Origin: Candidatus Poseidoniales archaeon
Lineage (GTDB): Archaea; Thermoplasmatota; Poseidoniia; Poseidoniales; Thalassarchaeaceae
Direction of reading: 5' to 3'
Assembly: GCA_003602515.1 (NCBI GenBank)
Contig: QQSB01000002.1
Span: 6,296-70,015 of the forward strand
Length of the DNA stretch: 63,720 nt
Positions 10,608 through 57,977 of this stretch are shown piece after piece. Each line of letters starts with the position of its first letter. Position 1 is the first letter of the stretch. Under the pieces are notes generated by a model, which did no database searches, had not been told where the DNA came from, and worked only from the letters and a program-made list of their open reading frames with translations. Made by a program: the position numbers and the translations under genes.

Positions 10608-11609
10608 ATGAGTTCGGGAGCAATCCATACGAATGTCTATGACAGCCGTAAGTCAGGAAGTTTTGTGATTAATCGATCATTCTCGGTCATTTTCATTTCC
10701 AGTATGCTGGTTCTTTGTGGTATTTCTCCCAGTGGTTCGGCTCAAGTTCTGCCTGAAACCGATCTCGAGTGCGATGACTCAACGGAAATTGATCTCTCGG
10801 ACGGGGCCGGTAGTTCTGTTATCAATTGTGAACTAACTAATCCGACTGCTTTTGCTGAGAAGGTTGAGTTGACCTATCAGAGCGGGGCTCTGGATACGGC
10901 TGGCCCGGGGAGCGTGACTGTTGAAGGCGGGCAGACCTCGACTTTCCAGATTGTGATAGCCTCTTCCTCGGGGCAGTCAGCTGGAACTTACGAGGTCAAC
11001 GTAAGTGCGGTGGTGACCGAGTGGAACGGGGTTCCAGTGAGTATTTTCGGGTTCTCGGACGAAGAGGGGGTCGAAGTAGAGGTACTCCCCTACACGACTT
11101 GCTCTTCTTCGCGACCCTCGGCAATCTTCGCTGAGGCTGGCGAGGATGTGGCCTTCTCGGTGGTTTACAGCTGTGATAGCAACGAGGATATCAGCATGTC
11201 AATCTCTCTGCATCTGCTGGAGAAGGGCAGCTCGCAAGAGGGAATGTGGCCATCGGGTTTCAATGACATGTCGGTGGGTGGCTGCAATATCCAGAATCCG
11301 ATGGGTTCTGTAAGCTGCGATTTCATCCTGACCACGCCTTCCAACCTCCAAGAGAAGTGGGAGGGATGCCTGATCGTGGTGGATGAGGTTAGCAACCCGG
11401 GATGGTCCTGCTCGAGTGATTTCGCGTTCCCTCTAACTGTGAATGAGAGGGAGACCGTGGTTCCCTCAGTCGGAATTGACGTGAATGGAACTATACTGGA
11501 GGAACTGGGTGTCACAGAGGAGAATCAGGTTTACTTCATCGGAGGCGGTGCTGGACTAGTCGTTCTGTTGATTTCTCTGATTGTGATTCTGAGACGTCGT
11601 CGTAGCTAG
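10608..11609 (+). CDS. secreted / membrane-anchored surface protein (hypothetical)
   Basis: N-terminal signal-like segment FSVIFISSMLVLCGISPSGSAQV, a Cys-containing beta-rich body, and a C-terminal TM anchor GLVVLLISLIVILRRRRS. Confidence 0.55.
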   Translation: MSSGAIHTNVYDSRKSGSFVINRSFSVIFISSMLVLCGISPSGSAQVLPETDLECDDSTEIDLSDGAGSSVINCELTNPTAFAEKVELTYQSGALDTAGPGSVTVEGGQTSTFQIVIASSSGQSAGTYEVNVSAVVTEWNGVPVSIFGFSDEEGVEVEVLPYTTCSSSRPSAIFAEAGEDVAFSVVYSCDSNEDISMSISLHLLEKGSSQEGMWPSGFNDMSVGGCNIQNPMGSVSCDFILTTPSNLQEKWEGCLIVVDEVSNPGWSCSSDFAFPLTVNERETVVPSVGIDVNGTILEELGVTEENQVYFIGGGAGLVVLLISLIVILRRRRS

Positions 11610-11686: not shown

Positions 11687-13240
11687 TTGTCCAATGCATT
11701 ACAGGAGACTGTGGCAAAGAAGTCGTTAGGGTCGTTAAATTGGGTCAGTCGATTTCTAGACGAGACCCCTGGAGACTCAATGTTTGGAGGAGCATCCAGG
11801 CAGGTTCCGGGAGCGTGCTGGTCTAGAGTGAAGCCTGAGCTCATGCCAGATACCAACATTAGGCTGTGGTCAGCCGAGATGGCTGCTGAACTAGGAATCG
11901 AGGTGGCTGATGCCGACTATCTCGGGGGGAGTAAATTTACTGAAGGAATGGATCCCTATTCACAGCGATACGGGGGCCATCAATTTGGAACCTGGGCAGG
12001 ACAACTTGGAGATGGCAGAGCGATTACCATAGGCGAGGTAGATACTGGGAGAGAGGTACTGGAGCTACAACTCAAGGGATCAGGAGCAACTCCCTACTCA
12101 CGTTTTTCCGATGGGAGAGCAGTTCTGCGCTCCTCAATTCGTGAGTTTCTCTGCAGCGAGGCTATGCATCACCTCGGCGTTCCGACAACCCGGGCACTAT
12201 CCCTAGTGACAACAGGAGAAGACGTTGTACGTGATATGTTGTATGATGGAAGACCGGCCCCCGAACCCGGCGCGATTGTCTGTAGAGTGGCTCAGAGTTT
12301 CATTCGATTCGGGAGCTTTCAGATCCACACAATGTCTGGGGATCAAGGTACGCTTAGAATCCTGGTTGACCACACAGTGAAGCGTCATTTCCCCGGTCAG
12401 GGTAGTGATTCTGATGAGGGGCTAATCGAATGGCTAAAGCAGATAGCAGATAGGACCGCGCTAACAATCGCCCATTGGATGAGAGTCGGCTTTGTGCATG
12501 GTGTGATGAACACGGATAATATGTCCGTCCATGGTCTTACCATTGATTATGGCCCATATGGCTGGCTAGAGGACTTCGATCCGAATTGGACGCCGAACAC
12601 GACTGATTCCAGTAGTAGAAGATACAGATTTGGTAATCAAGCTCAAATCGGAGCGTGGAACTTTGCCCGCCTGCTGGATTCAATTGCCCCCTTGATGGAG
12701 GAGCCAGAAAGGCTGTATGAGGCTCTAGAATTCTACTTCGAGGCGTATAAAGAGCATAATGGCCGAATGTGGGCTGGAAAGCTTGGTTTGGAGGGTTTCA
12801 ATGCTGGAGATGAAGGCCTAGTCACAGAATTGACATCAATTTTGCAGAGAGTCGAGACGGATATGACGATATTCTTCAGGATGTTATCTACGATTAGGAG
12901 ACCCGATGTCGATCATCTGAGATTCGCATTCTACAATGAAGATACGATTCCAGAAGACGAGTGGAACGATTGGCTTGGCAAATGGTGGGATAGGGTGAAC
13001 GAGAAGCCCGATCGGGAAAAAATGAGAAGCTCCAATCCGAAGTATGTTCTGAGAAATTGGATGGCTCAGTTAGCAATAGATGCCGCAGAAAAAGAAGACT
13101 ATTCAGTTGCCATAGAACTCTATGAGTTGCTGAAAAGACCCTATGATGAGCAAACGGAGTTCGAGAGTAGGTGGTTTAACAAACGCCCGGAATGGGCTAG
13201 GCATCGAGTTGGTTGCTCGATGCTTTCTTGTTCGAGTTAA
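11687..13240 (+). CDS. selO: SelO/YdiU family protein adenylyltransferase (pseudokinase fold)
   Basis: YSQRYGGHQFGTWAGQLGDGRAI, LQLKGSGATPYSR, DGRAVLRSSIREFLCSEAMHHLGVPTTRAL and HGVMNTDNMS. The start is TTG. Confidence 0.85.
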   Translation: MSNALQETVAKKSLGSLNWVSRFLDETPGDSMFGGASRQVPGACWSRVKPELMPDTNIRLWSAEMAAELGIEVADADYLGGSKFTEGMDPYSQRYGGHQFGTWAGQLGDGRAITIGEVDTGREVLELQLKGSGATPYSRFSDGRAVLRSSIREFLCSEAMHHLGVPTTRALSLVTTGEDVVRDMLYDGRPAPEPGAIVCRVAQSFIRFGSFQIHTMSGDQGTLRILVDHTVKRHFPGQGSDSDEGLIEWLKQIADRTALTIAHWMRVGFVHGVMNTDNMSVHGLTIDYGPYGWLEDFDPNWTPNTTDSSSRRYRFGNQAQIGAWNFARLLDSIAPLMEEPERLYEALEFYFEAYKEHNGRMWAGKLGLEGFNAGDEGLVTELTSILQRVETDMTIFFRMLSTIRRPDVDHLRFAFYNEDTIPEDEWNDWLGKWWDRVNEKPDREKMRSSNPKYVLRNWMAQLAIDAAEKEDYSVAIELYELLKRPYDEQTEFESRWFNKRPEWARHRVGCSMLSCSS

Positions 13241-13288: not shown

Positions 13289-13615
13289 TTACCCTAGGAT
13301 AGTGATCATCCATCTGAGAGAAAGCGACGATGTGACTCCTATGATCAAGGATGGGACCGTTGCAAAGTCGCATACTGCGCTGTAAAAGTAGAATAGCGCG
13401 AGAGTCAGCAGGAGGGAGGTCCCGAAGTCGATCGCCTGGCTCCTACCTAGTCCAGAGTTATTGATGACATGATCCCTCTCCCTTATTGCGAACACCATAG
13501 CGACTAGCGTAGCCAACAAAATTGCGTGGCCAACCACCCAACCAATCGAGTCTCCAAAGACGGAGACCAGGTCATCCTGGAATGTGCCTAGGATGGTGGA
13601 GGCGAGGTCGAACAC
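13289..13615 (-). CDS. small hypothetical membrane protein
   Basis: 108 aa with about three hydrophobic helices. Confidence 0.4.
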   Translation of the reverse strand: MFDLASTILGTFQDDLVSVFGDSIGWVVGHAILLATLVAMVFAIRERDHVINNSGLGRSQAIDFGTSLLLTLALFYFYSAVCDFATVPSLIIGVTSSLSLRWMITILG

Positions 13616-13674: not shown

Positions 13675-14526
13675 TCACTCGTATCCTAACTTCAGGTGGG
13701 CGTTACCAAACCTCTCCTCGTACGCATCCATTACTTGGCTTGAGAAGTACTCCTCCCACTTGCGTAACTTTCCGGTCGAGATGTGCGGATTGGAGGCTAT
13801 TTCGTCTGCTCTCATCCTGTTCAAATCATGGCCCTTAGCAATCTCAAGACAAGTTGAGATCGAGGTTTCTGGGATCCCTATCCAACGGAACAGCTTCTCG
13901 AATGAACCATCGAAATCTGCTACTAGGTCCTCCATCTTGATGGTCAAGACGTTGTCTCTCTCCTTCCAGCCGACCATCTCGTCAATGGTGATTCTTGCGA
14001 AACCATCCATTTCGAAGATTAGCCCCTCGTCCTGTCCGAGCCCTCTTATCCTCTCCTGATACGATACCCCTCCCAGGCTGGATACGAAGGACTCTCGGGT
14101 CTCCAAGTCTCTATGAGCAAGGGGTAGCGGGACCTGAGGATGGTGATATCCGGGCTTAGAGAAGTCCGAATTAACGCACCACAACTCAGAGCATCTCTGG
14201 TGATATAGAAAACCGGATACGATGACATCTCTTGGATCTCGGATTATCCTGACTCCCCTCCTTCCAGACTGTAGAAAGGCATCTGTCGTGGTTCCGTGAA
14301 TGACGTGAAGGAGATCTGTCTTCGATGCGATGTCCTGTGCGATCCCCATCTCGCTATTGTACCTCCAGCCGATTCTCTCGGTCGATTCCATCAGCACCTT
14401 CCTGCATAGGACGGTCGCGACCTTGTGGTGAGTCAGGATGAATGCAGGCTCTGCAGGCTTGCTCCCCAAGGCCCTCCTTACGCTCAAGACCATCTGCTTC
14501 GCTGTCCAGAGTCCCGGTATGTACAC
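13675..14526 (-). CDS. PAPS-dependent sulfotransferase (family-1-like)
   Basis: HHKVAT (5'-PSB-like), RIIRDPRDVIVSGF (3'-PB) and C-terminal GKLRKWEEYFS. Confidence 0.75.
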   Translation of the reverse strand: MYIPGLWTAKQMVLSVRRALGSKPAEPAFILTHHKVATVLCRKVLMESTERIGWRYNSEMGIAQDIASKTDLLHVIHGTTTDAFLQSGRRGVRIIRDPRDVIVSGFLYHQRCSELWCVNSDFSKPGYHHPQVPLPLAHRDLETRESFVSSLGGVSYQERIRGLGQDEGLIFEMDGFARITIDEMVGWKERDNVLTIKMEDLVADFDGSFEKLFRWIGIPETSISTCLEIAKGHDLNRMRADEIASNPHISTGKLRKWEEYFSSQVMDAYEERFGNAHLKLGYE

Positions 14527-14583
14527 GAATATCCCATCTATCCGTCCTGATGATTCAGAGATGAATGAATCGGTGTGAGACTA

Positions 14584-15816
14584 CTATAGAAGAGAACGTA
14601 GCCTCTCGTCCAGTTGTGAGGCGTAGTTCTCCGAGCTGAGACCTAGTTCTACGATTCTGGAAAGCCCGGATTCGGCCCATCTTGCCCTTATATCGGGGTC
14701 TCTTGCTTGCATCAACGCTTGCCTCCAATCGTCAAAGTCACCTCTAGCAACCAGCCTGCCGTTGACTCCGTCTACTATAGTGTCCCGATACCCGCCCTCA
14801 TCGACGAAAACGGGTGGCGCCCCCAGAGCCATAGACTCAATCGGGGTGAGTCCGAACGCCTCGCCGTGTGCCAGACCTATCACCGCCGTGGATCTCTTCA
14901 TCAGGATAGCCATCTCGGTGCTGTCTAGGTTAGATAGGACCTGTACATCGACTCCCAACCTCCTCCCAAAGGACACGAGGTCCTGGTTCTCCGTCCCGCT
15001 ACCTCCCCCAACTAGGACCAAATCTAGGTCGCATCCGACAATATGCTCGACTGATTCGTAAGCACCCTTGAATCGACTTAGATTTCCGACGGTCACGACG
15101 TATTCTGATTCGTTTGATCCTCTCAGTCTGTCGATGACTCGATCTTCGCCGGGAGATTCCTCTCTCTGGAATTCAGACAGGTCAACTACTGGGAATAGTA
15201 CCTCGCCCGTGATTCCATATTCCTCCATTAGTTTACTCGCAGAGTAGTTAGAATTGGCGCTAATGATCCACTTCTCGTTCTGGTTGAATCCTTTGAATGA
15301 AGAAATTATTCTCCTTTTGTGGTAGACCTGCAAAGCATGGACGACATGAGCCCGCCACATACCAGAACCATCGCTATTGAGGTGGCTCACGCTGTCGAAA
15401 ATCCCTGATTTAGATTCTAGGAAGTGAAGATGGAGCGGCTTTGAATTGGGAACCAAGGAGACGAAGTCCATTGATCCGGCTCCAGTCGTGAGATGGATTG
15501 CATCTGCCCATTCGATGGCATGACTGATTCCTTCTAGGGCCTCCCATGCCTTCTTTGACGATCTATCCTGCTTCGCCGATATCTCGTTCCAAATCCCACC
15601 CTTCACCTCCCATTGTCTATCAGGACAGATTACTTCCACACCGAGAGACTCTATTTTCACGCGTTGGCTATCCAGTATGTTGAGGCAGCAGAATTTCACC
15701 TCGAATTTCCTGCTCAACTCAGGGAGGTTGCGAAGGAGGTCTCGAGCCGCCCCCCCATTCCGTACCATGGCTGCCTTGGACACTAGGAGCCTGGTTGCGC
15801 GTCCCTCCATGACCAT
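14584..15816 (-). CDS. GT4-family glycosyltransferase
   Basis: C-terminal GEAFGLTPIESMALGAPPVFVDEGG (E-x7-E region) and a GT-B layout. Confidence 0.8.
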   Translation of the reverse strand: MVMEGRATRLLVSKAAMVRNGGAARDLLRNLPELSRKFEVKFCCLNILDSQRVKIESLGVEVICPDRQWEVKGGIWNEISAKQDRSSKKAWEALEGISHAIEWADAIHLTTGAGSMDFVSLVPNSKPLHLHFLESKSGIFDSVSHLNSDGSGMWRAHVVHALQVYHKRRIISSFKGFNQNEKWIISANSNYSASKLMEEYGITGEVLFPVVDLSEFQREESPGEDRVIDRLRGSNESEYVVTVGNLSRFKGAYESVEHIVGCDLDLVLVGGGSGTENQDLVSFGRRLGVDVQVLSNLDSTEMAILMKRSTAVIGLAHGEAFGLTPIESMALGAPPVFVDEGGYRDTIVDGVNGRLVARGDFDDWRQALMQARDPDIRARWAESGLSRIVELGLSSENYASQLDERLRSLL

Positions 15817-15871
15817 CCGGGTGCCAATTCTGGTTTTTCGTTGTCGGTTCAGAAGAAAGTGTCGAAATCTC

Positions 15872-16546
15872 TCAATTTGAGTATCCGAATAGCTCGAAGT
15901 CTTTCTCGTACCTCTTTGATGCTAAGGCCCTGGTTTCATCCGAGAATAGATCAGAGGCTGTTCTTCCTGATGACTTGTTCAGCATGGGAAGCTCTGCGAA
16001 GTCGTACCTTTCCCTTATCTCTTCAAAGTCCGATGGGAGATTCTCGAACTTTCCTATGAAGTCGATCTTCTTTCCCGAGGCGAAGACTATCTTGTTTTGA
16101 GCCTTGAAGTGCCTGTCGCACAGTATGTCTGGAATCTTCGATACCTTGCGGACAAACTCTTCGAAAGAATCGTCGTTTTTCAGGTACCCGAATAGATAAT
16201 TAGAGAACATGAACTTTGATTCGTCCACTTTGTTGAACTTTGCACGGTAGCAAGAGGCGAGTCTCTCATACGGGTCACGAACGATTGCAAAAGAAAAATA
16301 CGAGGTTTTCTTCTTGGGTATCCTTCTGTGAGAGAGATGGGATGTGTGCTGGTGGATCTGAATACCTTCGGGTGGAGAGCCGTAAATGGAGGTCTTAATC
16401 GACGAGCATGCCGATTTTGCCACACTGGCGAACACTACCTCCTTTTCGTCTAGGATGATGTAGTCGGGAGAGTCCAGTTCGCCTCTTATGACTACACTCG
16501 CCATGTCCCTAAGGAAGTGATACGTGTTTTTCAGAGAGATTTTCAT
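15872..16546 (-). CDS. sulfotransferase (family-2 / carbohydrate-sulfotransferase-like)
   Basis: ASVAKSACSSIK (5'-PSB) and AIVRDPYERLASCYRAKF (3'-PB). GC is low on hand-counted lines, about 40-47%. Confidence 0.7.
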   Translation of the reverse strand: MKISLKNTYHFLRDMASVVIRGELDSPDYIILDEKEVVFASVAKSACSSIKTSIYGSPPEGIQIHQHTSHLSHRRIPKKKTSYFSFAIVRDPYERLASCYRAKFNKVDESKFMFSNYLFGYLKNDDSFEEFVRKVSKIPDILCDRHFKAQNKIVFASGKKIDFIGKFENLPSDFEEIRERYDFAELPMLNKSSGRTASDLFSDETRALASKRYEKDFELFGYSN

Positions 16547-16690
16547 TTATCCTCCTCCGATGAAGTCATGAACCCCATAATAGGCATGCTATCCAAGAGG
16601 CGGGAATGGTCCGTTTTATGACTATGCTTGGCAAAGACCAGGTCGCCGATGATGAAAGTGAAATGATATGCCCCTACCGGAACAGCGAGG

Positions 16691-17596
16691 GTGTTGAGTG
16701 TGGATGTTTTCTTGATAGGGGTTCCAAAGGCCGGAACCACATGGTTGTCAAATATCCTAGATCAGCACCCTGGAGTTGTCCTTTCAGAACCCAAGGAGCC
16801 GAACTTCGTTGCTTCTCACAAAGGGACCTTCGAGAGGGACGAGGGTGAGCCTGATTGGTCCAAGTACGATGGTTTCTTCTCAGGAGATGGGCTGAAGATG
16901 GATGCATCCGTCCACACCTTTTCCTGTCCGATCGCACCAGAGAGGATAAGATCAAACTTCCCAGATGCTAGGTTCATTCTCTGTTTGAGAGAGCCCGTTT
17001 CTAGGACGGTGAGTCACTGGAACATGGTGCGAAGCACGGGTGAGGATCGAGAGAATGACAGGGATTGGAGTACTTTCGAGAAGGCTTGGTTGGACGATTC
17101 ATTACGTGTAGACTCATTATACGGGAGTTCAATGAAGGAATGGTTGAGTCATTTTGACCTAGATAGATTCGTGATTATCGATAGCTCTAGGATGAGGTCA
17201 GAGCCCATGGCAGTAGTGAGAGAGGTGGAGAGTTTCCTAAGAATCGAAGAATGGGACTACGACGTGAACATGGATAGGCACGCGAACCTAGCTTCGAGCA
17301 ATCGTAAGACCACAGCAGTCGGTACTTTGGTGAAGCTCATCTTCTCACTGATTCCCAAGTTTGTCAAATCTCCAATCGTAAAATCTCTGCAAAGGAGAGA
17401 CTGGAATATCTACAGATTGCCTGTATTGAGCGCTGAAGAAGAATACATACCGCTAGGCGATCATCATTACTCTACATGTGGTGAGGAATTATGCGACGAA
17501 ATTTCCCTGTTCGGGAGCTTGACTGGTTTCGACCACTCAGACTGGGAGAGTCATATGCGAGATAGGTTTGAGTCGGGTTCCGAGAGGAGCGAGTAG
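16691..17596 (+). CDS. PAPS-dependent sulfotransferase (family-1/3-like)
   Basis: Canonical FLIGVPKAGTTWLSNIL (5'-PSB) and LCLREPVSRTVSHW (3'-PB). GTG start. Confidence 0.8.
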   Translation: MLSVDVFLIGVPKAGTTWLSNILDQHPGVVLSEPKEPNFVASHKGTFERDEGEPDWSKYDGFFSGDGLKMDASVHTFSCPIAPERIRSNFPDARFILCLREPVSRTVSHWNMVRSTGEDRENDRDWSTFEKAWLDDSLRVDSLYGSSMKEWLSHFDLDRFVIIDSSRMRSEPMAVVREVESFLRIEEWDYDVNMDRHANLASSNRKTTAVGTLVKLIFSLIPKFVKSPIVKSLQRRDWNIYRLPVLSAEEEYIPLGDHHYSTCGEELCDEISLFGSLTGFDHSDWESHMRDRFESGSERSE

Positions 17597-18518
17597 TTTG
17601 GTAACACCTGCAGATGCTGAGTGGCTCATATCGAGAGCTGGGTTGCAGGGTCTGGATTCTATTGCCCCTCTGGATGGGGGTTGGGATAATACCAACTTGC
17701 AATTGATGCTGGAGAGTGGTTCTTCCTTCGTCCTGAAGGCATGGTACGCAAATACAGTCGAGGAGGTCGGCAGAGTAATCGCACGCCATGTTCACCTGCA
17801 TGAGCATGGAATCCCTACCACCGTCCCAATAATGCTCACTGATGGTTCGCTGATGGCCATCAAGGACGGGGTCGCGTGGACCCTACTTCCATTTGTCAAG
17901 GGAGGAATACTGGGGCTAGACGAGGCTTCTGTGCGTAGCCTTGGGGAAACCCAAGCCAAGATGCACCTCATTCCAGGAGCAGACTGCTTCCCCAAGAGTT
18001 ACAGGATGGGGTTCGAGTTGTTCGAAGAGGTGATTTCCCTATCCTCCAGGATGGGAGTGTCGAACCCGTTCGTCGAAATGCTGTCTTCACGGATTGCCGA
18101 GACTAAGTCAGATTTCCCCTCGGACCTACCAATGGGAGTCCTACATGGCGATTTATTCCCAGACAATGTGATTGGGAGCGGGGGGGGAGTATCTGCTATT
18201 CTCGATTTGGAAGAGGCCTGGATCGGCCCGATGGCATTCGACCTTGCAATGTCATGCGTGGGCTTCGGATGGGATGGAAATGTACCGGTTTGGAGTCGTT
18301 GGAAGGCCCTATTCGATGGATATCAGAGTGTGAGGAGACTCAGCCAGAAAGAGGTTGATTGCCTCCCATTTCTTCATCAATTTGCCACGCTATGTATAGC
18401 CTCCTGGAGGTTCTGGAAGCACAATCTAAGGGAGCCTGACGAGATTCTCTCCAACAGGTACGTGGAAATGGTTGATAGACTAAGCGTGGAGATTGATTTT
18501 TCCGAGGTCTTAGGATGA
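17568..18518 (+). CDS. APH-fold kinase (homoserine kinase type II / aminoglycoside phosphotransferase family)
   Basis: VLHGDLFPDNVI catalytic loop and ILDLEEA. The ORF-track TTG start overlaps the upstream gene by 29 nt. An in-frame TTG at 17598 is an alternative start. Confidence 0.65.
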   Translation: MSRVPRGASSLVTPADAEWLISRAGLQGLDSIAPLDGGWDNTNLQLMLESGSSFVLKAWYANTVEEVGRVIARHVHLHEHGIPTTVPIMLTDGSLMAIKDGVAWTLLPFVKGGILGLDEASVRSLGETQAKMHLIPGADCFPKSYRMGFELFEEVISLSSRMGVSNPFVEMLSSRIAETKSDFPSDLPMGVLHGDLFPDNVIGSGGGVSAILDLEEAWIGPMAFDLAMSCVGFGWDGNVPVWSRWKALFDGYQSVRRLSQKEVDCLPFLHQFATLCIASWRFWKHNLREPDEILSNRYVEMVDRLSVEIDFSEVLG

Positions 18519-18982
18519 GTGGATTGGTGCACTCGATCAACATCAGCTCCGGCGGGGTACCCAAGAGAACCGTTGATTCCGCCAAGATCGGTAAGAAGGG
18601 GGTCGAAGGCGACTTCAACCGGTTCCGAGACGGACAGGGGGGGGATCTCGATAGAGCGGTCTGCATCTTCTCCCTCGAGCGGATCGAGGAACTGAAGTCG
18701 GAGGGACACCCCATAGAGGTCGGTTCGACTGGCGAGAACCTGACGATTCGTGGAGTCGAGTGGGACTCCCTAGTTGAGGGGGCGAGGCTGGAGATTGGTG
18801 ACGTCGTCTTGGAGCTCAGCGAGCCCTGTGCGCCTTGCTCGAAGATAGGCGAGTCGTTCATCGATAGGCGGTTTGGTAGAGTCGATCACGTCCAAGAGTT
18901 CGGTTGGTCGAGGTGGTTAGCGCGCGTTGTACGGGAAGGTACGGTCTCGATTGGTGATTCCGTGAATATAGTTATTACTTGA
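18515..18982 (+). CDS. stand-alone MOSC domain protein
   Basis: GENLTIRG and the invariant cysteine context EPCAPCSKIG. Its ATG overlaps the kinase TGA (ATGA). Confidence 0.75.
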   Translation: MSGLVHSINISSGGVPKRTVDSAKIGKKGVEGDFNRFRDGQGGDLDRAVCIFSLERIEELKSEGHPIEVGSTGENLTIRGVEWDSLVEGARLEIGDVVLELSEPCAPCSKIGESFIDRRFGRVDHVQEFGWSRWLARVVREGTVSIGDSVNIVIT

Positions 18983-20137: not shown

Positions 20138-20222
20138 GCAGAGGTACCCGAGCGGTCAAAGGGGCTGGGATGAGGTCCCAGTGCGTAGTGCTTCGCAGGT
20201 TCGAATCCTGCCCTCTGCACCA
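20138..20222 (+). tRNA. tRNA-Leu (anticodon GAG), class II with long variable arm, CCA encoded
   Basis: Hand-folded cloverleaf. Acceptor GCAGAGG/CCTCTGC. Anticodon stem CTGGG/CCCAG with loop ATGAGGT (U33, GAG, G37). 13-nt variable region. T arm GCAGG-TTCGAAT-CCTGC. Discriminator A, then CCA. Confidence 0.85.
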
Positions 20223-27347: not shown

Positions 27348-27368
27348 GCGAGATTACGCGAATTGAAT

Positions 27369-28178
27369 ATGGATAACGTCCTAAGGAGTAAAAATGGAAA
27401 AGCAAGAGGGCTTGCAATCGGTACATCGATAGCAGTCGGAGTCGTAATGATGCCAACAGTGGCAGCAGAGACTCAAATCCTCGCTGAAAACGATTGGGTG
27501 GGAATCAGCTTCTGGATAGCAACAGCAATGATGCTAGCCTCAACTGTATTCTTCCTTGTCGAGAGACAGAACGTGGATGACAAGTGGAAGACCTCCATGA
27601 CAGTGGCCGCACTGGTCACTGGTGTGGCATGGTACCACTACACATACATGCGCGAAGTCGCTGTAATGGATGGCGGTGGATCGCCACTCGTCTACAGGTA
27701 CATCGACTGGCTGATCACCGTACCGCTACAGGTTGTAGAGTTTTACCTGATTATGGCAGCAATCGGAGCAGCTACCTTCGCTATGTTCAGGAACCTAATG
27801 GCAGCATCAATCGTGATGCTCGTAGCTGGTTTCTTCGGCGAGTCAGGAGCATGGGATCTCTTCGGAGGCACAAGCACCGAGATCTGGTGGGTCATCGGAA
27901 TGGCAGGATGGGGTTACATCCTCTATGCACTCTGGGGAGGCGATGTCAAAGAGGCATCCGAGACCGGCAGCGATGGTGTGCAATTTGCATTCACCTCAAT
28001 GAGGTGGATCGTGTCAGTTGGGTGGGCGATCTATCCAATCGGCTACATGATGGGTAACGACATGATCTCCGGCTTCGACGTCGACGACATGAACATCATC
28101 TACAACATTGCTGACTTGGTGAACAAGACTGCATTCGGTATGATGGTATGGTACGCAGCTACCATGGACTCGCAATAG
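27369..28178 (+). CDS. proteorhodopsin (light-driven proton pump type)
   Basis: WYHYTYMRE (H75 equivalent). YRYIDWLITVPLQVVEF gives D-T-E at the 97/101/108 equivalents and Q at the 105 tuning site. Retinal lysine lies in NIADLVNKTAFGMMVW. N-terminal signal-like segment. ATG at 27369 is preferred over TTG at 27363. Confidence 0.9.
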   Translation: MDNVLRSKNGKARGLAIGTSIAVGVVMMPTVAAETQILAENDWVGISFWIATAMMLASTVFFLVERQNVDDKWKTSMTVAALVTGVAWYHYTYMREVAVMDGGGSPLVYRYIDWLITVPLQVVEFYLIMAAIGAATFAMFRNLMAASIVMLVAGFFGESGAWDLFGGTSTEIWWVIGMAGWGYILYALWGGDVKEASETGSDGVQFAFTSMRWIVSVGWAIYPIGYMMGNDMISGFDVDDMNIIYNIADLVNKTAFGMMVWYAATMDSQ

Positions 28179-35260: not shown

Positions 35261-36301
35261 GTGGTCGGAGACTCAGGCGATTCGGGAATAATATTGGTTA
35301 CGGGTGCCAGTGGGTATATTGGAAGCCACATCGTAGCAAACCTACTGTCCAAGGGGATGAGTGTTAGGGCCACAGTGAGGGATTCGTCGGATCCTGAAAG
35401 AGTGGAGCACCTCGAATCCTTGTCGGTCTCTGAAGGCGGGAACTTGGAGATTGTAGAGATGGACCTCCTCGAGAACGAATCGGTGCATAACGCCGTATCC
35501 GGTTGCGAGTCAGTGATTCATACGGCAGCGGTCGTAGTGCTGAAATCAAAGAGGGCTCAGGAGAAGATCGTCGACCCCAGTGTGGTGGGAACGAGGAACG
35601 TCCTCGATGCGATTGATTCTACGGACAGCGTGAAGTGCCTTGTTCACACCTCCTCCACCGCTGCAATTAGGCCTAGTTCGTGGGAGGATGGTCAAACACT
35701 GACCACAGAGACTTGGGCGGATGACGCGACAATTGAGGAAAACCCGTACGGCCTAGCGAAGTATAGTGCTGAGATGTTGGTCAGGGACTGGCATTCTTCG
35801 AAGGAGGGTTCGGTTCGGATGGTTACAATCAACCCGTGCGTCGTTCTAGGTCCACCGCTATCTAAGAGACATCTCGATGGTAGTCCATCGTTTCTGATGA
35901 TGCTCCTTAGGCGAGAAATCCCCTTCGTGATTCCCATGCACATCAGCATAGTGGATGTGAGGGACGTAGCCGAGGCTCACGTCAGGGCGCTGACTAAGGG
36001 AGAGGATGCCGGGAGGTATCTAGTCGTCTCTGGTCAGATGTGGTGGAAGGATATCGCCAGGACAATAAATGCAGACAATCCATCATTGAGGGTACCCATG
36101 CGCCAAATCCCGTACTGGCTCTCTCTCATTGTCTCGTTCTTCCATCCAAGGGTGAGCCTGTCGTGGGCGAGGATGCACTTGGGCAAGAGGCTGTTTTGGG
36201 ATGCGTCTCCTGCCAAGAGAGATCTGGGTATGAACTGGAAGGAGCCGAGTGAATCGGTCTTAGACACCATACCCCCAATCCTAGAGAATGGGTGGAAGTA
36301 G
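35261..36301 (+). CDS. NAD(P)-dependent extended SDR (epimerase/dehydratase, aldehyde-reductase-like)
   Basis: ILVTGASGYIGSH and YGLAKYSAE (YxxxK). GTG start 2 nt after the MMPL stop. Confidence 0.75.
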   Translation: MVGDSGDSGIILVTGASGYIGSHIVANLLSKGMSVRATVRDSSDPERVEHLESLSVSEGGNLEIVEMDLLENESVHNAVSGCESVIHTAAVVVLKSKRAQEKIVDPSVVGTRNVLDAIDSTDSVKCLVHTSSTAAIRPSSWEDGQTLTTETWADDATIEENPYGLAKYSAEMLVRDWHSSKEGSVRMVTINPCVVLGPPLSKRHLDGSPSFLMMLLRREIPFVIPMHISIVDVRDVAEAHVRALTKGEDAGRYLVVSGQMWWKDIARTINADNPSLRVPMRQIPYWLSLIVSFFHPRVSLSWARMHLGKRLFWDASPAKRDLGMNWKEPSESVLDTIPPILENGWK

Positions 36302-46109: not shown

Positions 46110-47318
46110 TCAGAATAGCCATAGGGCATCGATAGTGTCGCCCTTTTGACAACTCGTATCAGGAGGGAGTAGCGAGAGCCCATTATGCGCAACCATGCTG
46201 TGAATATTCCCACTCCCTTGGTGGGTACTAGTGGATGCAACCAGATTGTTGCCCTCTTGCCTGATTGAGATCCTCCTCATACACAGCTTTCCCGGGGCAC
46301 CCTTGAGTGGCTCCTGCATGGTGACGCGTACCCTGTTTGCCATGCTGGAGCCATTGGCTTCGTCTGAACCCATGCTCTTTGACATCCAAGGTGCGACCAA
46401 GACCGTGAAGACAACATGACTGCTAACTGGATTACCGGGAAGTCCGAAGAGGGGTGTTCCCTTCCAATATCCGAAGAGGGGGGGACCTCCTGGTCTCATC
46501 ATGATCCTCCAGAATCTAATATCGCCTTCCTGCTCCATTATCTGTCGGACGATATCCCACTCTCCCATACTGACTCCCCCACTAGTGATTATCGCATCAC
46601 AAGATCCCGCAGCCTCGTCGAGTGCTTTCCTCAGATCCTCAATACTGTCCCTAATCAGTGCGGATCTCCGTGGAGTCCCCCCCATCTTCTTCACAAGCGA
46701 GGAGATTCCAAATGTGTTGGATTCGTATATCGAGTTCTCCGAAAGGGGCTCTCCCGGAGGCGTCAGCTCATCTCCCACCCCAATCACTGCTATCGAAGGC
46801 GGTCGAACTACGGACACTGTGTCGTGCCCCATTGTTGCTGCAAGGGAGATTGCGGATGGAGTGAGTATGTTTCCAGATCTCAAGGGTCGTTCACCCTCAG
46901 TGAGGTTCTCCCCTCTCTTGCGAATGAAGCCGGGTCTTGCTGGGCCGTTGATCGTGACTGAGCCATCATGAGTCGTTGAATCCTCAATCATCACGATCGC
47001 ATTGGCCCCCTCTGGAATCGGAGCTCCCGTCATGATGCTGCAGGCCTCGCCCTCACCAACTAGTGGGACTTCCGCGGATCCGGCTTGGCTAGTCCCAACT
47101 ATCCTCAATACTGCTCCTGACTCTTGGCAGTCTGCCTCCCTAACGGCCCATCCGTCCATTGCAGAATTGTCGAAACGTGGGTCGTCAACTAAAGAGATGA
47201 GGTCATCGAAAAGTATCCTGCCTGTTGCCTGATCAAGAGGCAGTATCTCTTGATATCTTTCTATGGGTGTTTGGTTCGCTATCTCCAATGCCCGCTCCAG
47301 AGACACACCCTTCTCCAT
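46110..47318 (-). CDS. moeA: molybdopterin molybdenumtransferase
   Basis: NSAMDGWAV, ITSGGVSMGEWD and LPGNPVSS. The internal ATG at 47318 avoids overlap with the divergent TauE gene. Confidence 0.85.
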   Translation of the reverse strand: MEKGVSLERALEIANQTPIERYQEILPLDQATGRILFDDLISLVDDPRFDNSAMDGWAVREADCQESGAVLRIVGTSQAGSAEVPLVGEGEACSIMTGAPIPEGANAIVMIEDSTTHDGSVTINGPARPGFIRKRGENLTEGERPLRSGNILTPSAISLAATMGHDTVSVVRPPSIAVIGVGDELTPPGEPLSENSIYESNTFGISSLVKKMGGTPRRSALIRDSIEDLRKALDEAAGSCDAIITSGGVSMGEWDIVRQIMEQEGDIRFWRIMMRPGGPPLFGYWKGTPLFGLPGNPVSSHVVFTVLVAPWMSKSMGSDEANGSSMANRVRVTMQEPLKGAPGKLCMRRISIRQEGNNLVASTSTHQGSGNIHSMVAHNGLSLLPPDTSCQKGDTIDALWLF

Positions 47319-47367
47319 GGATGTCGAGAAACGGTGGAGTTGAAGTGTCCTTCCCAAAGCGGTCCTC

Positions 47368-48126
47368 GTGGTTTCCACTGAGTTGGTGCTGGTCCTATTG
47401 GCTCTCTTCGTAGTGGCATCACTGTACTCCTCTGTTGGACTCGGGGGGGCTTCAGGATACCTGGCTGTCCTGTCGATGACGACATTCGCAGCATCGGAGT
47501 CTATCTGGCTCAAGCAGTATGCTTGGTCACTGAATCTAATTGTAGCTGGAATCGCGTTCTGGCACTACCACAAATCTGGACACCATGTCAGGGGGCTGTC
47601 GATTCCGTTCATCTCTGCTAGCGTTCCCATGGCCGCCCTTGGAGGTTTCATGCTAGTGGATGGGAACGTGTATGACGCCCTTCTATCTCTCGCATTGATC
47701 GTAGCAGCTTGGAGGTTGGTTTCAGGCGATGCTGGGGTTAGCGAAGCGGTCCGACCCAGTGCTACCAAGGCCGCGGCAGTTGGAGGTGGGATTGGCTTGG
47801 CTAGTGGAGTGATAGGTTTGGGAGGAGGTATCTTCCTTCTGCCAGCTCTAATGCTCGGTAGGTGGGCTACAGCTAAGGAGGCGGCTGCGACAACCTCACT
47901 CTTCGTCTGGTTAAACTCCCTCGCTGGTTTGGTAGGAGCGAGTCTTGCTGGTAGGCTTGACTTGGAACCTGAACTCCTTATCCCATTCTCATCTGTAGTA
48001 CTAGTGGGGGGTTTTCTTGGTTCTAGGTATGGGTCGCGAGTATCGTCCCAGAGTGGGATCCGGGGATTACTAGTAGTAGTCCTGGTACTTGCTGCATCCA
48101 GGAGGATATTCCAGATTCTGGGCTAG
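47368..48126 (+). CDS. TauE/SafE (DUF81) family anion exporter
   Basis: Duplicated 4-TM halves, each with a VGLGGASGY or GLGGGIFLLP motif. Confidence 0.7.
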   Translation: MVSTELVLVLLALFVVASLYSSVGLGGASGYLAVLSMTTFAASESIWLKQYAWSLNLIVAGIAFWHYHKSGHHVRGLSIPFISASVPMAALGGFMLVDGNVYDALLSLALIVAAWRLVSGDAGVSEAVRPSATKAAAVGGGIGLASGVIGLGGGIFLLPALMLGRWATAKEAAATTSLFVWLNSLAGLVGASLAGRLDLEPELLIPFSSVVLVGGFLGSRYGSRVSSQSGIRGLLVVVLVLAASRRIFQILG

Positions 48127-56253: not shown

Positions 56254-57138
56254 TCACTCTCCGTCCCAGATTCCTTCGGCTATCATGAACTCCATTACTC
56301 GCTCAGAGACGTTTGCTCGGTTGCCTCCTCGAACCCCTGTGGCGGAAACAGCGAAAACCTCGGCAGGGATGTCTTGGGCTTCCCTCACCTCGTAGCCGAC
56401 CTTGCGACCATAGGATACGGCCTCTATATCTGGCATTATCCAAGCCTCGACATCCTCGTCGGAATACCTGTGCTCGACCATACGCTTGCGGAGATGGGCT
56501 GGGTATGGGTCGGAGTCGGTGACAGGGGTGTCTCGGATCCCGACAATTACTCTCTTGCCCTTGTCTAGCTCTTGCTGGATTAGCCATTCATGCCCCACAT
56601 GAAGTGGTTGCCAGCGACCGGGTAGCAAAACCGCCTTCGGCTTCTCAAATAAGTGCGAGAGCTCCTCGACCATGTCATCCACCTTGTGACCCGGTGCGCC
56701 GCTTGAATCAAGAGTCATGTGTGCGCACTGTGGCTCATCGAATGGGTCAGAAATTCCCGTGAAGTTGGAGATCTCACCCAACCTTGCTTTGGCATATAGG
56801 CCCTTGACATCACGGTCCTCGCATACTTCTAGAGAAGTTGAAACATGCACCATGATCGAATTATGGGGCAGGATTTCGAGAATTCTTTCACGTACGTCCT
56901 CGTAGGGTGTGATGAATGAGCAGATCACGGGGGTATGCTTGGACATCAGTCTAGCCATCTTCGCGATGCCAAGAAGGTGCCTCTCCCTACCCTGTCTTGA
57001 GAAGTCGTTGTTTGAGAAGAAGTCTCTGATCGTGTCGCCATCGAGTAGTTCCGCTCCATACCTCTTTGCCGCTGCCTCTGCTATCGTAGTCTTACCGGCC
57101 CCAGAGAGTCCAATTAGCCAAACCACCTTGTTCCCCAT
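56254..57138 (-). CDS. cysC: adenylylsulfate (APS) kinase fused to a C-terminal HxGH nucleotidyltransferase domain
   Basis: Kinase half: GLSGAGKTT, LDGDTIR, FITPYEDVRE and CEDRDVKGLYAKARLGEISNFTGISDPFDEP. C-terminal half: RWQPLHVGH and VSATGVRGG. An alternative upstream start at 57198 would overlap cysQ. Confidence 0.8.
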   Translation of the reverse strand: MGNKVVWLIGLSGAGKTTIAEAAAKRYGAELLDGDTIRDFFSNNDFSRQGRERHLLGIAKMARLMSKHTPVICSFITPYEDVRERILEILPHNSIMVHVSTSLEVCEDRDVKGLYAKARLGEISNFTGISDPFDEPQCAHMTLDSSGAPGHKVDDMVEELSHLFEKPKAVLLPGRWQPLHVGHEWLIQQELDKGKRVIVGIRDTPVTDSDPYPAHLRKRMVEHRYSDEDVEAWIMPDIEAVSYGRKVGYEVREAQDIPAEVFAVSATGVRGGNRANVSERVMEFMIAEGIWDGE

Positions 57139-57176
57139 TTCCACACCTGAACGACCCGCCGACCCAAGTCGGTCAT

Positions 57177-57977
57177 TTAATCCTGATTCTGAGCCCAAAT
57201 CTCATTCCAATCGGTGCTACACGCAGCCAAGAAGTATGGATTGAGGACATCGCTCACTATGTCATAGTCCAATGGTCGGCAGTCCGGCCCCATTACGAAA
57301 CCGCCGGCTGACTCTACGACCGCGTGGGCTGCTGCTATGTCCCAGCAGGAAGTGGGTCCGAACCTCGGGTAGAGGTCGGCTGTTCCATCTGCGACCACAC
57401 AAGCCTTCAGCGATGAGCCCATTCTGACTAAGTCGTGTCTCCCGATTTGTTCAGCGAACCTTTCGTCTCTTTCCGCTCTATGGCTGCCGCTTGCTACGAG
57501 TCTGATGGGCGTGGTGATTTGTCTGTTCACAGAGATAGTTTTCGAAATTGAGTCCACTATGCGAGATGCCGGTGTTAATTCGCCACCGAGCCACGTTGTC
57601 TTGGAAACCGGGGCATGGACGACTCCGAAAGCGGGTTTCCAGCGGTCCCCGTATCTCTTCATGAGTGCGATGTTTACCGTAAACATCCCGTTACGTTTGA
57701 TGAACTCCTTAGTCCCGTCGAGTGGATCCACCAGCCAGGATGCATCTGAATCCATCGGATCACCGATCCTTCCTTCCTCGGAAACGATTGGAGTGTTGGG
57801 ATCTATCGATGCCAGTCCCCTGACTATGGTATCGTGAGCGGCGATATCAGCCTCCGTGAGTGGTGAGTCGTCACTCTTTGTCTGAACCTCGATGCCCTCG
57901 GAGGATTCGTAGACATCCATTATCGCCTGCCCTGCATCTTCCGCAATACGAGCTATTTCGAGAGGGTCGAATGACAT
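57177..57977 (-). CDS. cysQ: 3'(2'),5'-bisphosphate nucleotidase
   Basis: VSEEG, WLVDPLDGTKEF, MGSSLKACVVADG and WDIAAAHAVVESAGG. Confidence 0.8.
   Translation of the reverse strand: MSFDPLEIARIAEDAGQAIMDVYESSEGIEVQTKSDDSPLTEADIAAHDTIVRGLASIDPNTPIVSEEGRIGDPMDSDASWLVDPLDGTKEFIKRNGMFTVNIALMKRYGDRWKPAFGVVHAPVSKTTWLGGELTPASRIVDSISKTISVNRQITTPIRLVASGSHRAERDERFAEQIGRHDLVRMGSSLKACVVADGTADLYPRFGPTSCWDIAAAHAVVESAGGFVMGPDCRPLDYDIVSDVLNPYFLAACSTDWNEIWAQNQD

Follow-up and report, generated by a model that had tools for sequence, protein, structure and literature searches.

In a 63,720-nucleotide stretch from the genome of a Candidatus Poseidoniales archaeon of the family Thalassarchaeaceae (contig QQSB01000002.1, positions 6,296 to 70,015; hereafter the window), four adjacent genes encode three predicted sulfotransferases, which we call ST1, ST2 and ST3, and a predicted glycosyltransferase of family 4 (GT4). 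These genes occupy a slot that keeps its place among conserved neighbors while its content differs from one Poseidoniales species to another. The account we favor, with some reservation, is that the cassette is a species-variable set of cytoplasmic enzymes that build and sulfate a glycan for display at the cell surface. A first-pass annotation of this DNA had described four adjacent genes here, and the list of open reading frames (ORFs) contains all four, on the strands given below.

13675-14526, minus strand: ST1, 283 amino acids, predicted SULT-like soluble sulfotransferase
14584-15816, minus strand: GT4 glycosyltransferase, 410 amino acids
15872-16546, minus strand: ST2, 224 amino acids, Sulfotransfer_2 family
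16547-16690: divergent intergenic region of 144 nucleotides, between the minus-strand run of ST2, GT4 and ST1 (continuing to a 108-amino-acid membrane protein gene) and the plus-strand run of ST3, APH, MOSC and DUF6159
16691-17596, plus strand: ST3, 301 amino acids, related to heparan-sulfate 3-O- and N-sulfotransferases

Family profiles, conserved binding residues and fold models make it very probable that ST1, ST2 and ST3 are sulfotransferases dependent on 3'-phosphoadenosine 5'-phosphosulfate (PAPS). The first-pass annotation had credited each of them with both PAPS-binding signatures, and this is borne out: every motif it quoted lies at definable residue positions, and the lysine of the 5'-phosphosulfate-binding motif (5'-PSB) and the arginine and serine of the 3'-phosphate-binding motif (3'-PB) are conserved in each family. 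The three also belong to distinct subfamilies, as had been proposed, since neither BLAST nor family hidden Markov models (HMMs) can find one from another. Checked against Pfam profiles and, for ST1 and ST2, by structural models, all three are sulfotransferase-like.

ST3 matches both PF00685 (60.8 bits, E 1.7e-16) and PF13469 (59.6 bits, E 6.7e-16) above their gathering thresholds. Its motifs are GVPKAGTTW at residues 10-18 and LREPVSRTVS at residues 99-108, and K13, E36, R100 and S108 are invariant among 119 homologues (for R100 and S108, invariant or at least 95% conserved). Against the Protein Data Bank (PDB), about 180 residues align to the heparan-sulfate 3-O-sulfotransferase (3-OST) 3-OST-5 (3bd9, E 3e-13), and 3-OST-1, 3-OST-3 and the sulfotransferase domain of NDST1 are also matched (structures 3bd9, 1vkj, 1t8t and 1nst, E 3e-13 to 1e-6). 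ST3 shares with these enzymes the PKxGTT 5'-PSB, the RxPxxRxxS 3'-PB and the position of the catalytic glutamate, with which E36 aligns in the 3-OSTs. It differs from them in being a soluble prokaryotic protein of low identity that has no Golgi anchor and carries a C-terminal extension of about 110 amino acids, which is conserved and has no solved relative. Heparan sulfate itself is very unlikely to be the acceptor.

ST2 covers the entire profile of PF03567 (Sulfotransfer_2; 73 bits, E 5.4e-20, above the gathering threshold), the Pfam family of the carbohydrate sulfotransferases. Its motifs are AKSACSS (residues 43-49) and IVRDPYERLAS (88-98). Among 90 homologues K44, R90, S98 and Q150 are invariant (for the 3'-PB pair R90 and S98, invariant or at least 95% conserved), and H146, kept in 84, is a candidate catalytic base. 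Sequence searches of the PDB gave only chance matches, so the assignment rests on Pfam and on the fold model (pLDDT 91.8). The top 22 fold matches of this model in the PDB are all sulfotransferases, with weak scores, the best being the heparan-sulfate 6-O-sulfotransferase HS6ST (E 0.017, TM-score 0.38). Neither ST2 nor ST1 is matched by any NCBIfam model.

In ST1 the PF00685 match (38.5 bits, E 1.1e-9, above the gathering threshold) spans residues 74-274 only. The motifs are HHKVAT (residues 33-38), RIIRDPRDVIVS (93-104) and GKLRKWEEYF (252-261), the first of which falls outside the Pfam match. HHKVAT is nevertheless a genuine variant 5'-PSB of the form [H/Y]-H-K-x-[A/G]-[T/S]: the variant is kept in all 52 homologues that span the region, the most distant of which read HHKSGTVW or HHKVGTTW, and its lysine, K35, is invariant in 52 of 52 ungapped homologues. 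Over 56 homologues the 3'-PB residues R96 and S104 are invariant or at least 95% conserved. The homologues also all keep H109 and W257, and H77, at least 95% conserved, lies 19 residues ahead of R96, the same spacing as that of the catalytic histidine of the cytosolic sulfotransferases (SULTs). Searched with a profile, 1.84 billion representatives yielded 537 clusters at E<=1e-30; [HY]HK is present in 85 of the 89 members that could be scored. ST1 is thus a member of a large, uncharacterised environmental subfamily. Searched by sequence, the PDB gave no useful match to ST1; searched with the AlphaFold model (pLDDT 91.4), it gave 56 matches at E<=1e-3, all 56 of them sulfotransferases of the cytosolic SULT type. 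The fold matches SULT7A1, SULT1C1, SULT2B1b and the glycopeptide sulfotransferases Teg12 and Teg14 with a Foldseek probability of 1.0 and E down to 5e-7, at 12-17% identity and TM-scores of only about 0.45. ST1 resembles the SULTs in its candidate catalytic histidine, its RxPxDxxVS 3'-PB and its C-terminal GxxxxW region, and departs from them in the 5'-PSB, where the variant motif stands in place of PKSGTTW.

The fourth protein had been annotated as a GT4 enzyme, and the assignment holds. It matches PF00534 (Glycos_transf_1; 69.3 bits, E 3.8e-19) and PF13692 (E 5e-13) and contains an EX7E motif (E319-x7-E327, within GEAFGLTPIES), and we predict a retaining glycosyltransferase of the GT-B fold and GT4 type. 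Its closest PDB matches are the WbaZ-1 mannosyltransferase, MshA, BshA and PimA. No Pfam profile covers residues 1-234, where no Glyco_transf_4 or Glyco_trans_4_4 domain is recognisable, and the alignments to MshA begin at residue 185; the N-terminal acceptor domain therefore appears to be divergent. No hydrophobic or transmembrane segment was found in any of the four proteins, and all four are predicted to be soluble. In three pairwise comparisons the ratio of nonsynonymous to synonymous divergence (dN/dS) was 0.07-0.08 for ST1, 0.07-0.09 for GT4, 0.05-0.06 for ST2 and 0.07-0.23 for ST3. The four genes are under strong purifying selection (dN/dS 0.05-0.23).

Contigs with homologues of these genes placed the cluster at one constant site, and we then compared the locus across 24 Poseidoniales species-representative loci anchored on the APH gene; those that are named to family belong to the Thalassarchaeaceae (Marine Group IIb, MGIIb). 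Wherever a locus extends far enough, the frame is constant: AICARFT, thermosome, a surface protein, the 108-amino-acid membrane protein, the slot, APH, MOSC, DUF6159, LysE and pyridoxal-phosphate (PLP) enzymes of Cys/Met type. APH adjoins the slot in all 24. The slot itself measures 1.3-4.5 kb and holds one to five genes, which outside the window were taken as longest ORFs and annotated with family HMMs and Pfam, not every one being checked against Pfam. Every slot contains one GT2, GT4 or glycosyltransferase-like gene, and all but that of L033 contain one to three sulfotransferases. The latter span four Pfam families (Sulfotransfer_1, 2, 3 and 4) and are often accompanied by methyltransferases or O-methyltransferases of TylF type or of the Methyltransf_24 or Methyltransf_12 families. 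The slot contents are as follows.

Window and L012-L016: ST1, GT4, ST2, ST3
L001 and L003: a different GT4, ST2, ST3 and a second Sulfotransfer_2
L004, L011, L026 and L027: ST1, a 355-amino-acid protein (310 in L011) with a faint GT-B match, ST2
L017 and L019: Methyltransf_24, GT2, ST2 and two ST3-like genes
L020-L022: GT4, ST3 and a Sulfotransfer_3
L024, L025 and L034: Methyltransf_24 and TylF-like methyltransferases, GT2 and a Sulfotransfer_2 (not every locus has all of these)
L030 and L032: GT2, Sulfotransfer_2, Sulfotransfer_4 and one gene of no recognised family
L028: one gene of no recognised family, a methyltransferase, GT4 and ST3
L031 and L035: GT2, a methyltransferase, one gene of no recognised family and two ST3-like genes
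L033: GT4 alone

The annotation had allowed that these might prove to be universally conserved core genes; with slot content that differs among 24 species, they are not. Among the surveyed species loci, orthologues of the window's GT4 are confined to its own clade, L028 (64% identity) and L033 (59%), and the remaining species have another GT4, a GT2 or a divergent glycosyltransferase-like protein at the slot. This last protein, 310-355 amino acids long (L004 10695-11762, minus strand; L011 11149-12081, plus strand), belongs to no Pfam or NCBIfam family. Its only match, a weak one (E 0.012), is to 5i45, the structure of a group 1 glycosyltransferase, and it may represent a divergent glycosyltransferase family. 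Slot ORFs without a recognisable family, 240-265 amino acids in length, occur at 6301-7023 in L028, 9193-9954 in L030 and 2923-3720 in L031. Single ST3-like genes, 48-60% identical, were also found in L007 (3204-4112) and L009 (10001-10879). We considered these distant homologues as slot loci and excluded them from the synteny argument as lone paralogues in unrelated contexts; at least some of these genomes therefore carry further PAPS-type sulfotransferases outside the slot.

Mainly because each slot mixes a glycosyltransferase with sugar-decorating enzymes, we read the acceptor as probably a glycan or glycoconjugate. In the mechanism that we propose, the retaining GT4, working on the inner side of the membrane, would add a sugar to a lipid-linked oligosaccharide of the dolichyl-phosphate type or to the precursor of a glycolipid. 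The three sulfotransferases would then use PAPS to O-sulfate one glycoconjugate, each acting on a different hydroxyl or a different sugar. As none of the enzymes has a membrane segment, they would have to work at the cytoplasmic face. PAPS would be made by the genome's CysC, with CysDN encoded elsewhere, and 3'-phosphoadenosine 5'-phosphate (PAP), the by-product of sulfotransfer, would be cleared by CysQ. The sulfated glycan would be exported and displayed on the cell surface, a destination that we consider a little better than an even bet. Other sets of glycosyltransferases, sulfotransferases and methyltransferases in the slot would give each species a glycan chemistry of its own, much as the decoration loci for O-antigen, capsule or exopolysaccharide (EPS) do in bacteria. 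We infer the acceptor, the lipid-linked stage, the surface display and the selective reason for the diversity. Of the annotation's proposal of cell-surface glycan or glycolipid sulfation, the role in glycan or glycoconjugate sulfation stands as the best reading, and the choice between a cell-surface glycan and a glycolipid is likewise one that we infer.

A candidate acceptor lies in the left part of the frame.

10608-11609, plus strand: surface protein, left-frame gene; secreted, acidic, with a C-terminal anchor

It has an N-terminal signal-like segment, a C-terminal transmembrane segment, 43 D/E residues to 12 K/R and, within its mature portion, two sequons, and NCBIfam models for choice-of-anchor T (66.9 bits, cut-off 70) and GG_III-CTERM (23.6 bits, cut-off 22) match it. 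The gene adjoins the slot in each locus that extends that far and evolves faster than its neighbors (72% identity where the thermosome has 88%).

Two genes for PAPS metabolism lie elsewhere in the window, the second overlapping the first by 22 nucleotides.

56254-57198, minus strand: adenosine 5'-phosphosulfate (APS) kinase, CysC; PF01583 E 9.8e-38, PDB APS kinases E 1.8e-29, TIGR00455 130.4 bits against a cut-off of 138.7
57177-57977, minus strand: CysQ, 3'(2'),5'-bisphosphate nucleotidase; TIGR01331 238.9 bits against a cut-off of 228.8, PF00459 E 8.7e-41

The first-pass annotation had the cassette fed by this PAPS module. CysC and CysQ are real, but 39 kb separates them from the cassette, and the scanned ORFs of the window yielded no ATP sulfurylase. 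At its C-terminus the APS kinase has an additional domain of about 130 amino acids, which belongs to the cytidylyl/adenylyltransferase family (PF01467 E 5.4e-5, with weak NMNAT and PPAT matches). This is an unusual fusion of APS kinase with a nucleotidyltransferase-like domain, which may be a minimal sulfate adenylyltransferase or something unrelated. CysDN and CysC have been described as specific to MGIIb, absent from MGIIa, and interpreted as assimilatory sulfate reduction (Orellana et al., PMC6864105); that paper makes no mention of a PAPS reductase or of a sulfite reductase. The sulfotransferase slot suggests a second use for MGIIb PAPS, beside or instead of sulfur assimilation.

Several observations weigh against the sulfated surface glycan. 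Our survey recovers only loci that keep the APH anchor, so that MGIIa loci were possibly missed. The structures nearest to the ST1 model are cytosolic SULTs that act on small molecules, and the fold match of ST2 is weak (TM-scores 0.38-0.47). The PAPS genes are unlinked to the cassette, and the surface protein is tied to it by adjacency only. In and beside the slot there is no AglB/STT3, flippase, dolichol-phosphate glycosyltransferase or nucleotide-sugar gene. AglB, flippases and dolichol-phosphate glycosyltransferases are also absent from the scanned ORFs of the window, though AglB may be elsewhere in the genome, and among the other window ORFs nucleotide-sugar and export functions were represented by nothing more than an NAD-dependent epimerase (35261-36301), which is unlinked, and an MMPL transporter.

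Some of these points suit a membrane glycolipid as acceptor, a sulfoglycolipid similar to the sulfated diglycosyl diether (S-DGD) series of haloarchaea; its archaeol-based lipid would receive sugar from GT4, and its head group would be sulfated by the sulfotransferases. The GT4 family includes lipid glycosyltransferases (PimA matches the window's protein with E 1.7e-5, and there is a weak NCBIfam match to GlcNAc-phosphatidylglycerol synthase), soluble enzymes at the inner membrane face would fit, and no oligosaccharyltransferase is encoded nearby. Nothing in this evidence sets the glycolipid apart from the version of our favored explanation that involves a lipid-linked oligosaccharide, and the presence of three sulfotransferases, joined by methyltransferases in other species, suggests a glycan larger than a mono- or diglycosyl head group. 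We found no literature on sulfoglycolipids of Marine Group II, and we hold this alternative to be rather unlikely.

Alternatively, the cassette might make a small soluble sulfated molecule, either a secondary metabolite or a disaccharide osmolyte like sulfotrehalose, which is an osmolyte in some haloalkaliphilic archaea; the sugar backbone would come from GT4 and be modified by the sulfotransferases within the cytosol. That all four enzymes are soluble would agree with this, as would the similarity of the ST1 model to the small-molecule SULTs and to Teg12 and Teg14, the weak matches of GT4 to enzymes with small acceptors (the trehalose synthase TreT, sucrose-phosphate synthase, MshA and BshA) and the lack of an export or lipid-carrier gene in the slot. 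These GT4 matches, however, are far under the family cut-offs, and three different sulfotransferases for a single small solute would be unusual. An osmolyte pathway would also be expected to be uniform, whereas between close species the slot swaps its glycosyltransferase family, changes the number and family of its sulfotransferases and adds methyltransferases, as is typical of surface-antigen loci. On balance, a small solute seems unlikely to be the product.

The history of the cassette bears on a stronger claim, that the block is a compositionally foreign island acquired by recent horizontal transfer. Within the window's clade, the identities of ST1, GT4, ST2 and ST3 follow those of the flanks, from 94-99% in L012 down to 77-82% in L015 and L016, where APH is at 78%. 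In the three pairwise comparisons the four genes show the same synonymous divergence (dS) as APH and MOSC, and the identical arrangement was found in ten independent contigs from different samples, a single-cell genome included. Because the identities track the flanks, dS equals that of the flanks, dN/dS is low and all ten contigs are alike, we conclude that the cassette is long-resident, functional and fixed in the window's species. Its history within the clade is one of vertical descent. The variable island that the first-pass annotation had suggested is thus variable between species, across the 24 loci, and invariant within the population. Replacement of the cassette did occur in at least one other lineage: in L017 and L019 the flanks are as near to the window's as those of L001 and L016 are (thermosome 89-90%, MOSC 90%), while ST2 is 55-58% and ST3 50% identical and the GC content at third codon positions (GC3) of the slot lies 13-17 points under that of its own flanks. 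Across 23 loci, slot GC is below the flanks in all 23 and slot GC3 in 19.

In the window itself, the low GC that had been noted for the block is real in part. ST2 (0.458) has the lowest GC of the window's genes and ST3 (0.481) is also low, but ST1 (0.519) and GT4 (0.520) are at the gene mean, and the 3.9-kb block as a whole, at 0.497 against 0.524, is only 2.7 points under the window, with 5.9% of equal-sized blocks as low or lower. Windows of 1 kb with equally low GC occur at 12.5-13.5, 23-24.5 and 28-30 kb. The hand counts behind the first impression, 38-47% against 57% in single 60-nucleotide lines, are close to sampling noise, since such lines vary with a standard deviation of 6.2 points (0.062). 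GC3 of the four genes is 0.55-0.64, inside the window's 0.58 +/- 0.05 and 1.6 points above the flanks; as GC3 is normal and the deficit is confined to codon positions 1 and 2, the dip reflects amino-acid content. The tetranucleotide distance of the block (z = 1.1-1.4) is smaller than at 37-41 kb and 47-52 kb. No integrase or transposase was found among the annotated slot and flanking genes (5.9-28.2 kb), and the window's tRNA-Leu gene lies 2.5 kb past the slot, beyond the three conserved genes APH, MOSC and DUF6159, with no sign of an integration site. The dip in GC, the low slot GC and GC3 in other loci and the true replacement in L017 and L019 all speak for a foreign origin, yet for the window's lineage the normal GC3 and tetranucleotide composition, the dS and the identities that track the flanks, and the same cassette in all ten population contigs largely refute it, and we regard recent transfer here as very unlikely.

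Sulfation of protein tyrosines by one or more of the enzymes (like TPST or RaxST), with the surface protein, a constant neighbor, as possible target, is extremely improbable: ST3 has faint N-terminal matches to human TPST1 (E 0.6-0.9), but these are limited to the shared PAPS loop, whereas carbohydrate sulfotransferases align over 180 residues (E 3e-13), ST2 falls in a carbohydrate sulfotransferase family of Pfam, soluble cytoplasmic enzymes cannot reach the mature domain of a secreted protein, and the constant pairing with a glycosyltransferase argues for sugar acceptors.

Around the cassette, the following features complete the locus.

13289-13615, minus strand: 108-amino-acid membrane protein, left bound of the slot; 59 nucleotides downstream of ST1 on the same strand
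17568-18518, plus strand: APH-family kinase, right-frame gene; resembles type II homoserine kinase
18515-18982: MOSC-domain gene, right frame
20138-20222, plus strand: tRNA-Leu (GAG), between DUF6159 and LysE; the sole tRNA in the window

On the minus strand ST2, GT4, ST1 and the 108-amino-acid membrane protein gene are arranged head to tail with gaps of 55-59 nucleotides, and on the plus strand ST3, APH, MOSC and DUF6159 abut or overlap. The intergenic region at 16547-16690 presumably holds the promoters of both runs. A GGAGG Shine-Dalgarno-like sequence stands immediately 5' of the ST2 ATG. Public gene calls for the same DNA begin ST1 at Met12 (272 amino acids, 13675-14493), give GT4 408 amino acids, start ST3 at 16700 (298 amino acids) and start APH at 17598. 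The overlap of ST3 and APH is only apparent, because ORFs were taken at their greatest length. The membrane protein has about three hydrophobic segments, matches no family in Pfam or NCBIfam and is found in each locus that extends that far. APH matches PF01636 (E 1.3e-25) and the homoserine kinase model NF003558 at 106 bits, below its cut-off of 271. We considered APH and MOSC as members of the cassette and rejected both, which are constant while slot content varies; APH, resembling a homoserine kinase beside PLP enzymes of Cys/Met/Thr type, is a frame gene, probably a housekeeping gene outside the cassette.

A lineage-specific insertion, a SelO/YdiU gene (protein adenylyltransferase family; 11687-13240, plus strand), separates the surface-protein and 108-amino-acid membrane-protein genes, which abut (-14 to +32 nucleotides) in 24 other loci. 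Besides the window and its population contigs, only L013 has this insert; the one at this spot in L014 is different, measures 1,014 nucleotides and contains an ORF rich in transmembrane segments. With a GC3 of 0.492 (z -1.8), below every gene of the sulfotransferase island, SelO looks more foreign than the cassette does. Other sulfur- or molybdenum-related genes in the window are MOSC and a TauE/SafE-family membrane protein, resembling sulfite/organosulfonate exporters (47368-48126, plus strand), which adjoins MoeA (46110-47513, minus strand); no link of these to the cassette is established. A bacteriorhodopsin-family gene (27363-28178, plus strand; PF01036 E 5e-49) fits reports of photoheterotrophy based on proteorhodopsin in Marine Group II.

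In the library of papers searched we found none on this locus, on sulfotransferases or glycosylation islands of Marine Group II, or on PAPS-type archaeal glycan or glycolipid sulfotransferases, the nearest being one sentence in PMC6864105. The slot offers a concrete, testable handle on the envelope of the uncultured Poseidoniales. It also suggests an alternative reading of the MGIIb-specific sulfate-activation genes, in which PAPS serves sulfation rather than, or as well as, assimilation. If surface glycans are what the cassette produces, the ocean would receive sulfated organic matter from them, and they would probably help to determine virus-host specificity. More tentatively, and with somewhat less than even confidence, we suggest that MGIIb cells, which are among the most abundant planktonic archaea, are coated with species-specific sulfated and in some cases methylated glycans made by PAPS-type sulfotransferases, that CysDN, CysC and CysQ serve mainly sulfation, and that slot swapping drives diversity of the surface, as might serve against viruses or grazers. 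This would be the first case of PAPS-dependent glycan sulfation from Archaea. The enzymes fall in known families, and related proteins from metagenome-assembled genomes already carry automatic names in public records (such as "sulfotransferase family 2 domain-containing protein"), so the advance lies in the context and the hypothesis and not in a new kind of system.

The first-pass annotation had considered the glycan sulfotransferases of haloarchaea not well defined. This is outdated: Agl30 and Agl31 of Halobacterium salinarum, identified in 2025, are the only glycan sulfotransferases of Archaea to have been defined by experiment, and in that organism N-glycan sulfation was inferred to occur on the complete dolichol-phosphate-bound tetrasaccharide (PMC11980604). 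There, a lipid-linked N-glycan has two of its sugars sulfated, each by a different enzyme; this resembles the assignment of one enzyme to each position that we propose and gives an archaeal precedent for a lipid-linked stage, although the enzymes are unrelated. Agl30 and Agl31 have the alkaline-phosphatase/sulfatase superfamily fold, and ST1, ST2 and ST3 are of the P-loop PAPS type, with no homology to them; the cassette enzymes would therefore represent a second, independent archaeal sulfation enzymology. The genes for Agl30 and Agl31, moreover, lie in a cluster anchored by aglB, and one of the two proteins is membrane-bound, whereas the enzymes of the window's cassette are predicted to be soluble and their genes have no aglB linkage.

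Among bacteria, the xss (synechan) cluster of Synechocystis, for a sulfated exopolysaccharide, pairs glycosyltransferases with PAPS-dependent sulfotransferases (PMC8205485). The cassette resembles it in combining a glycosyltransferase with PAPS-type sulfotransferases, and differs from it in being archaeal, in having a single glycosyltransferase and no Wzx/Wzy, polymerase or export genes, and in the unlinked position of its PAPS genes. Prokaryotic clusters of glycosyltransferases and sulfotransferases whose product is an extracellular sulfated glycan or a glycolipid signal are likewise known from rhizobial Nod-factor sulfation, where NodH and NoeE act with NodPQ; ST3 has a faint match to NoeE. 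Bacterial O-antigen and capsule loci hold a fixed position between housekeeping genes, with replaceable content and a GC lower than that of their flanks. The Poseidoniales slot is much smaller than these loci (1.3-4.5 kb, one to five genes) and lacks genes for transport or polymerisation, and its variation, unlike theirs, is seen between species and not within the single population examined. It shares with them a fixed position, lineage-specific content, GC under the flanks and occasional replacement of the whole cassette.

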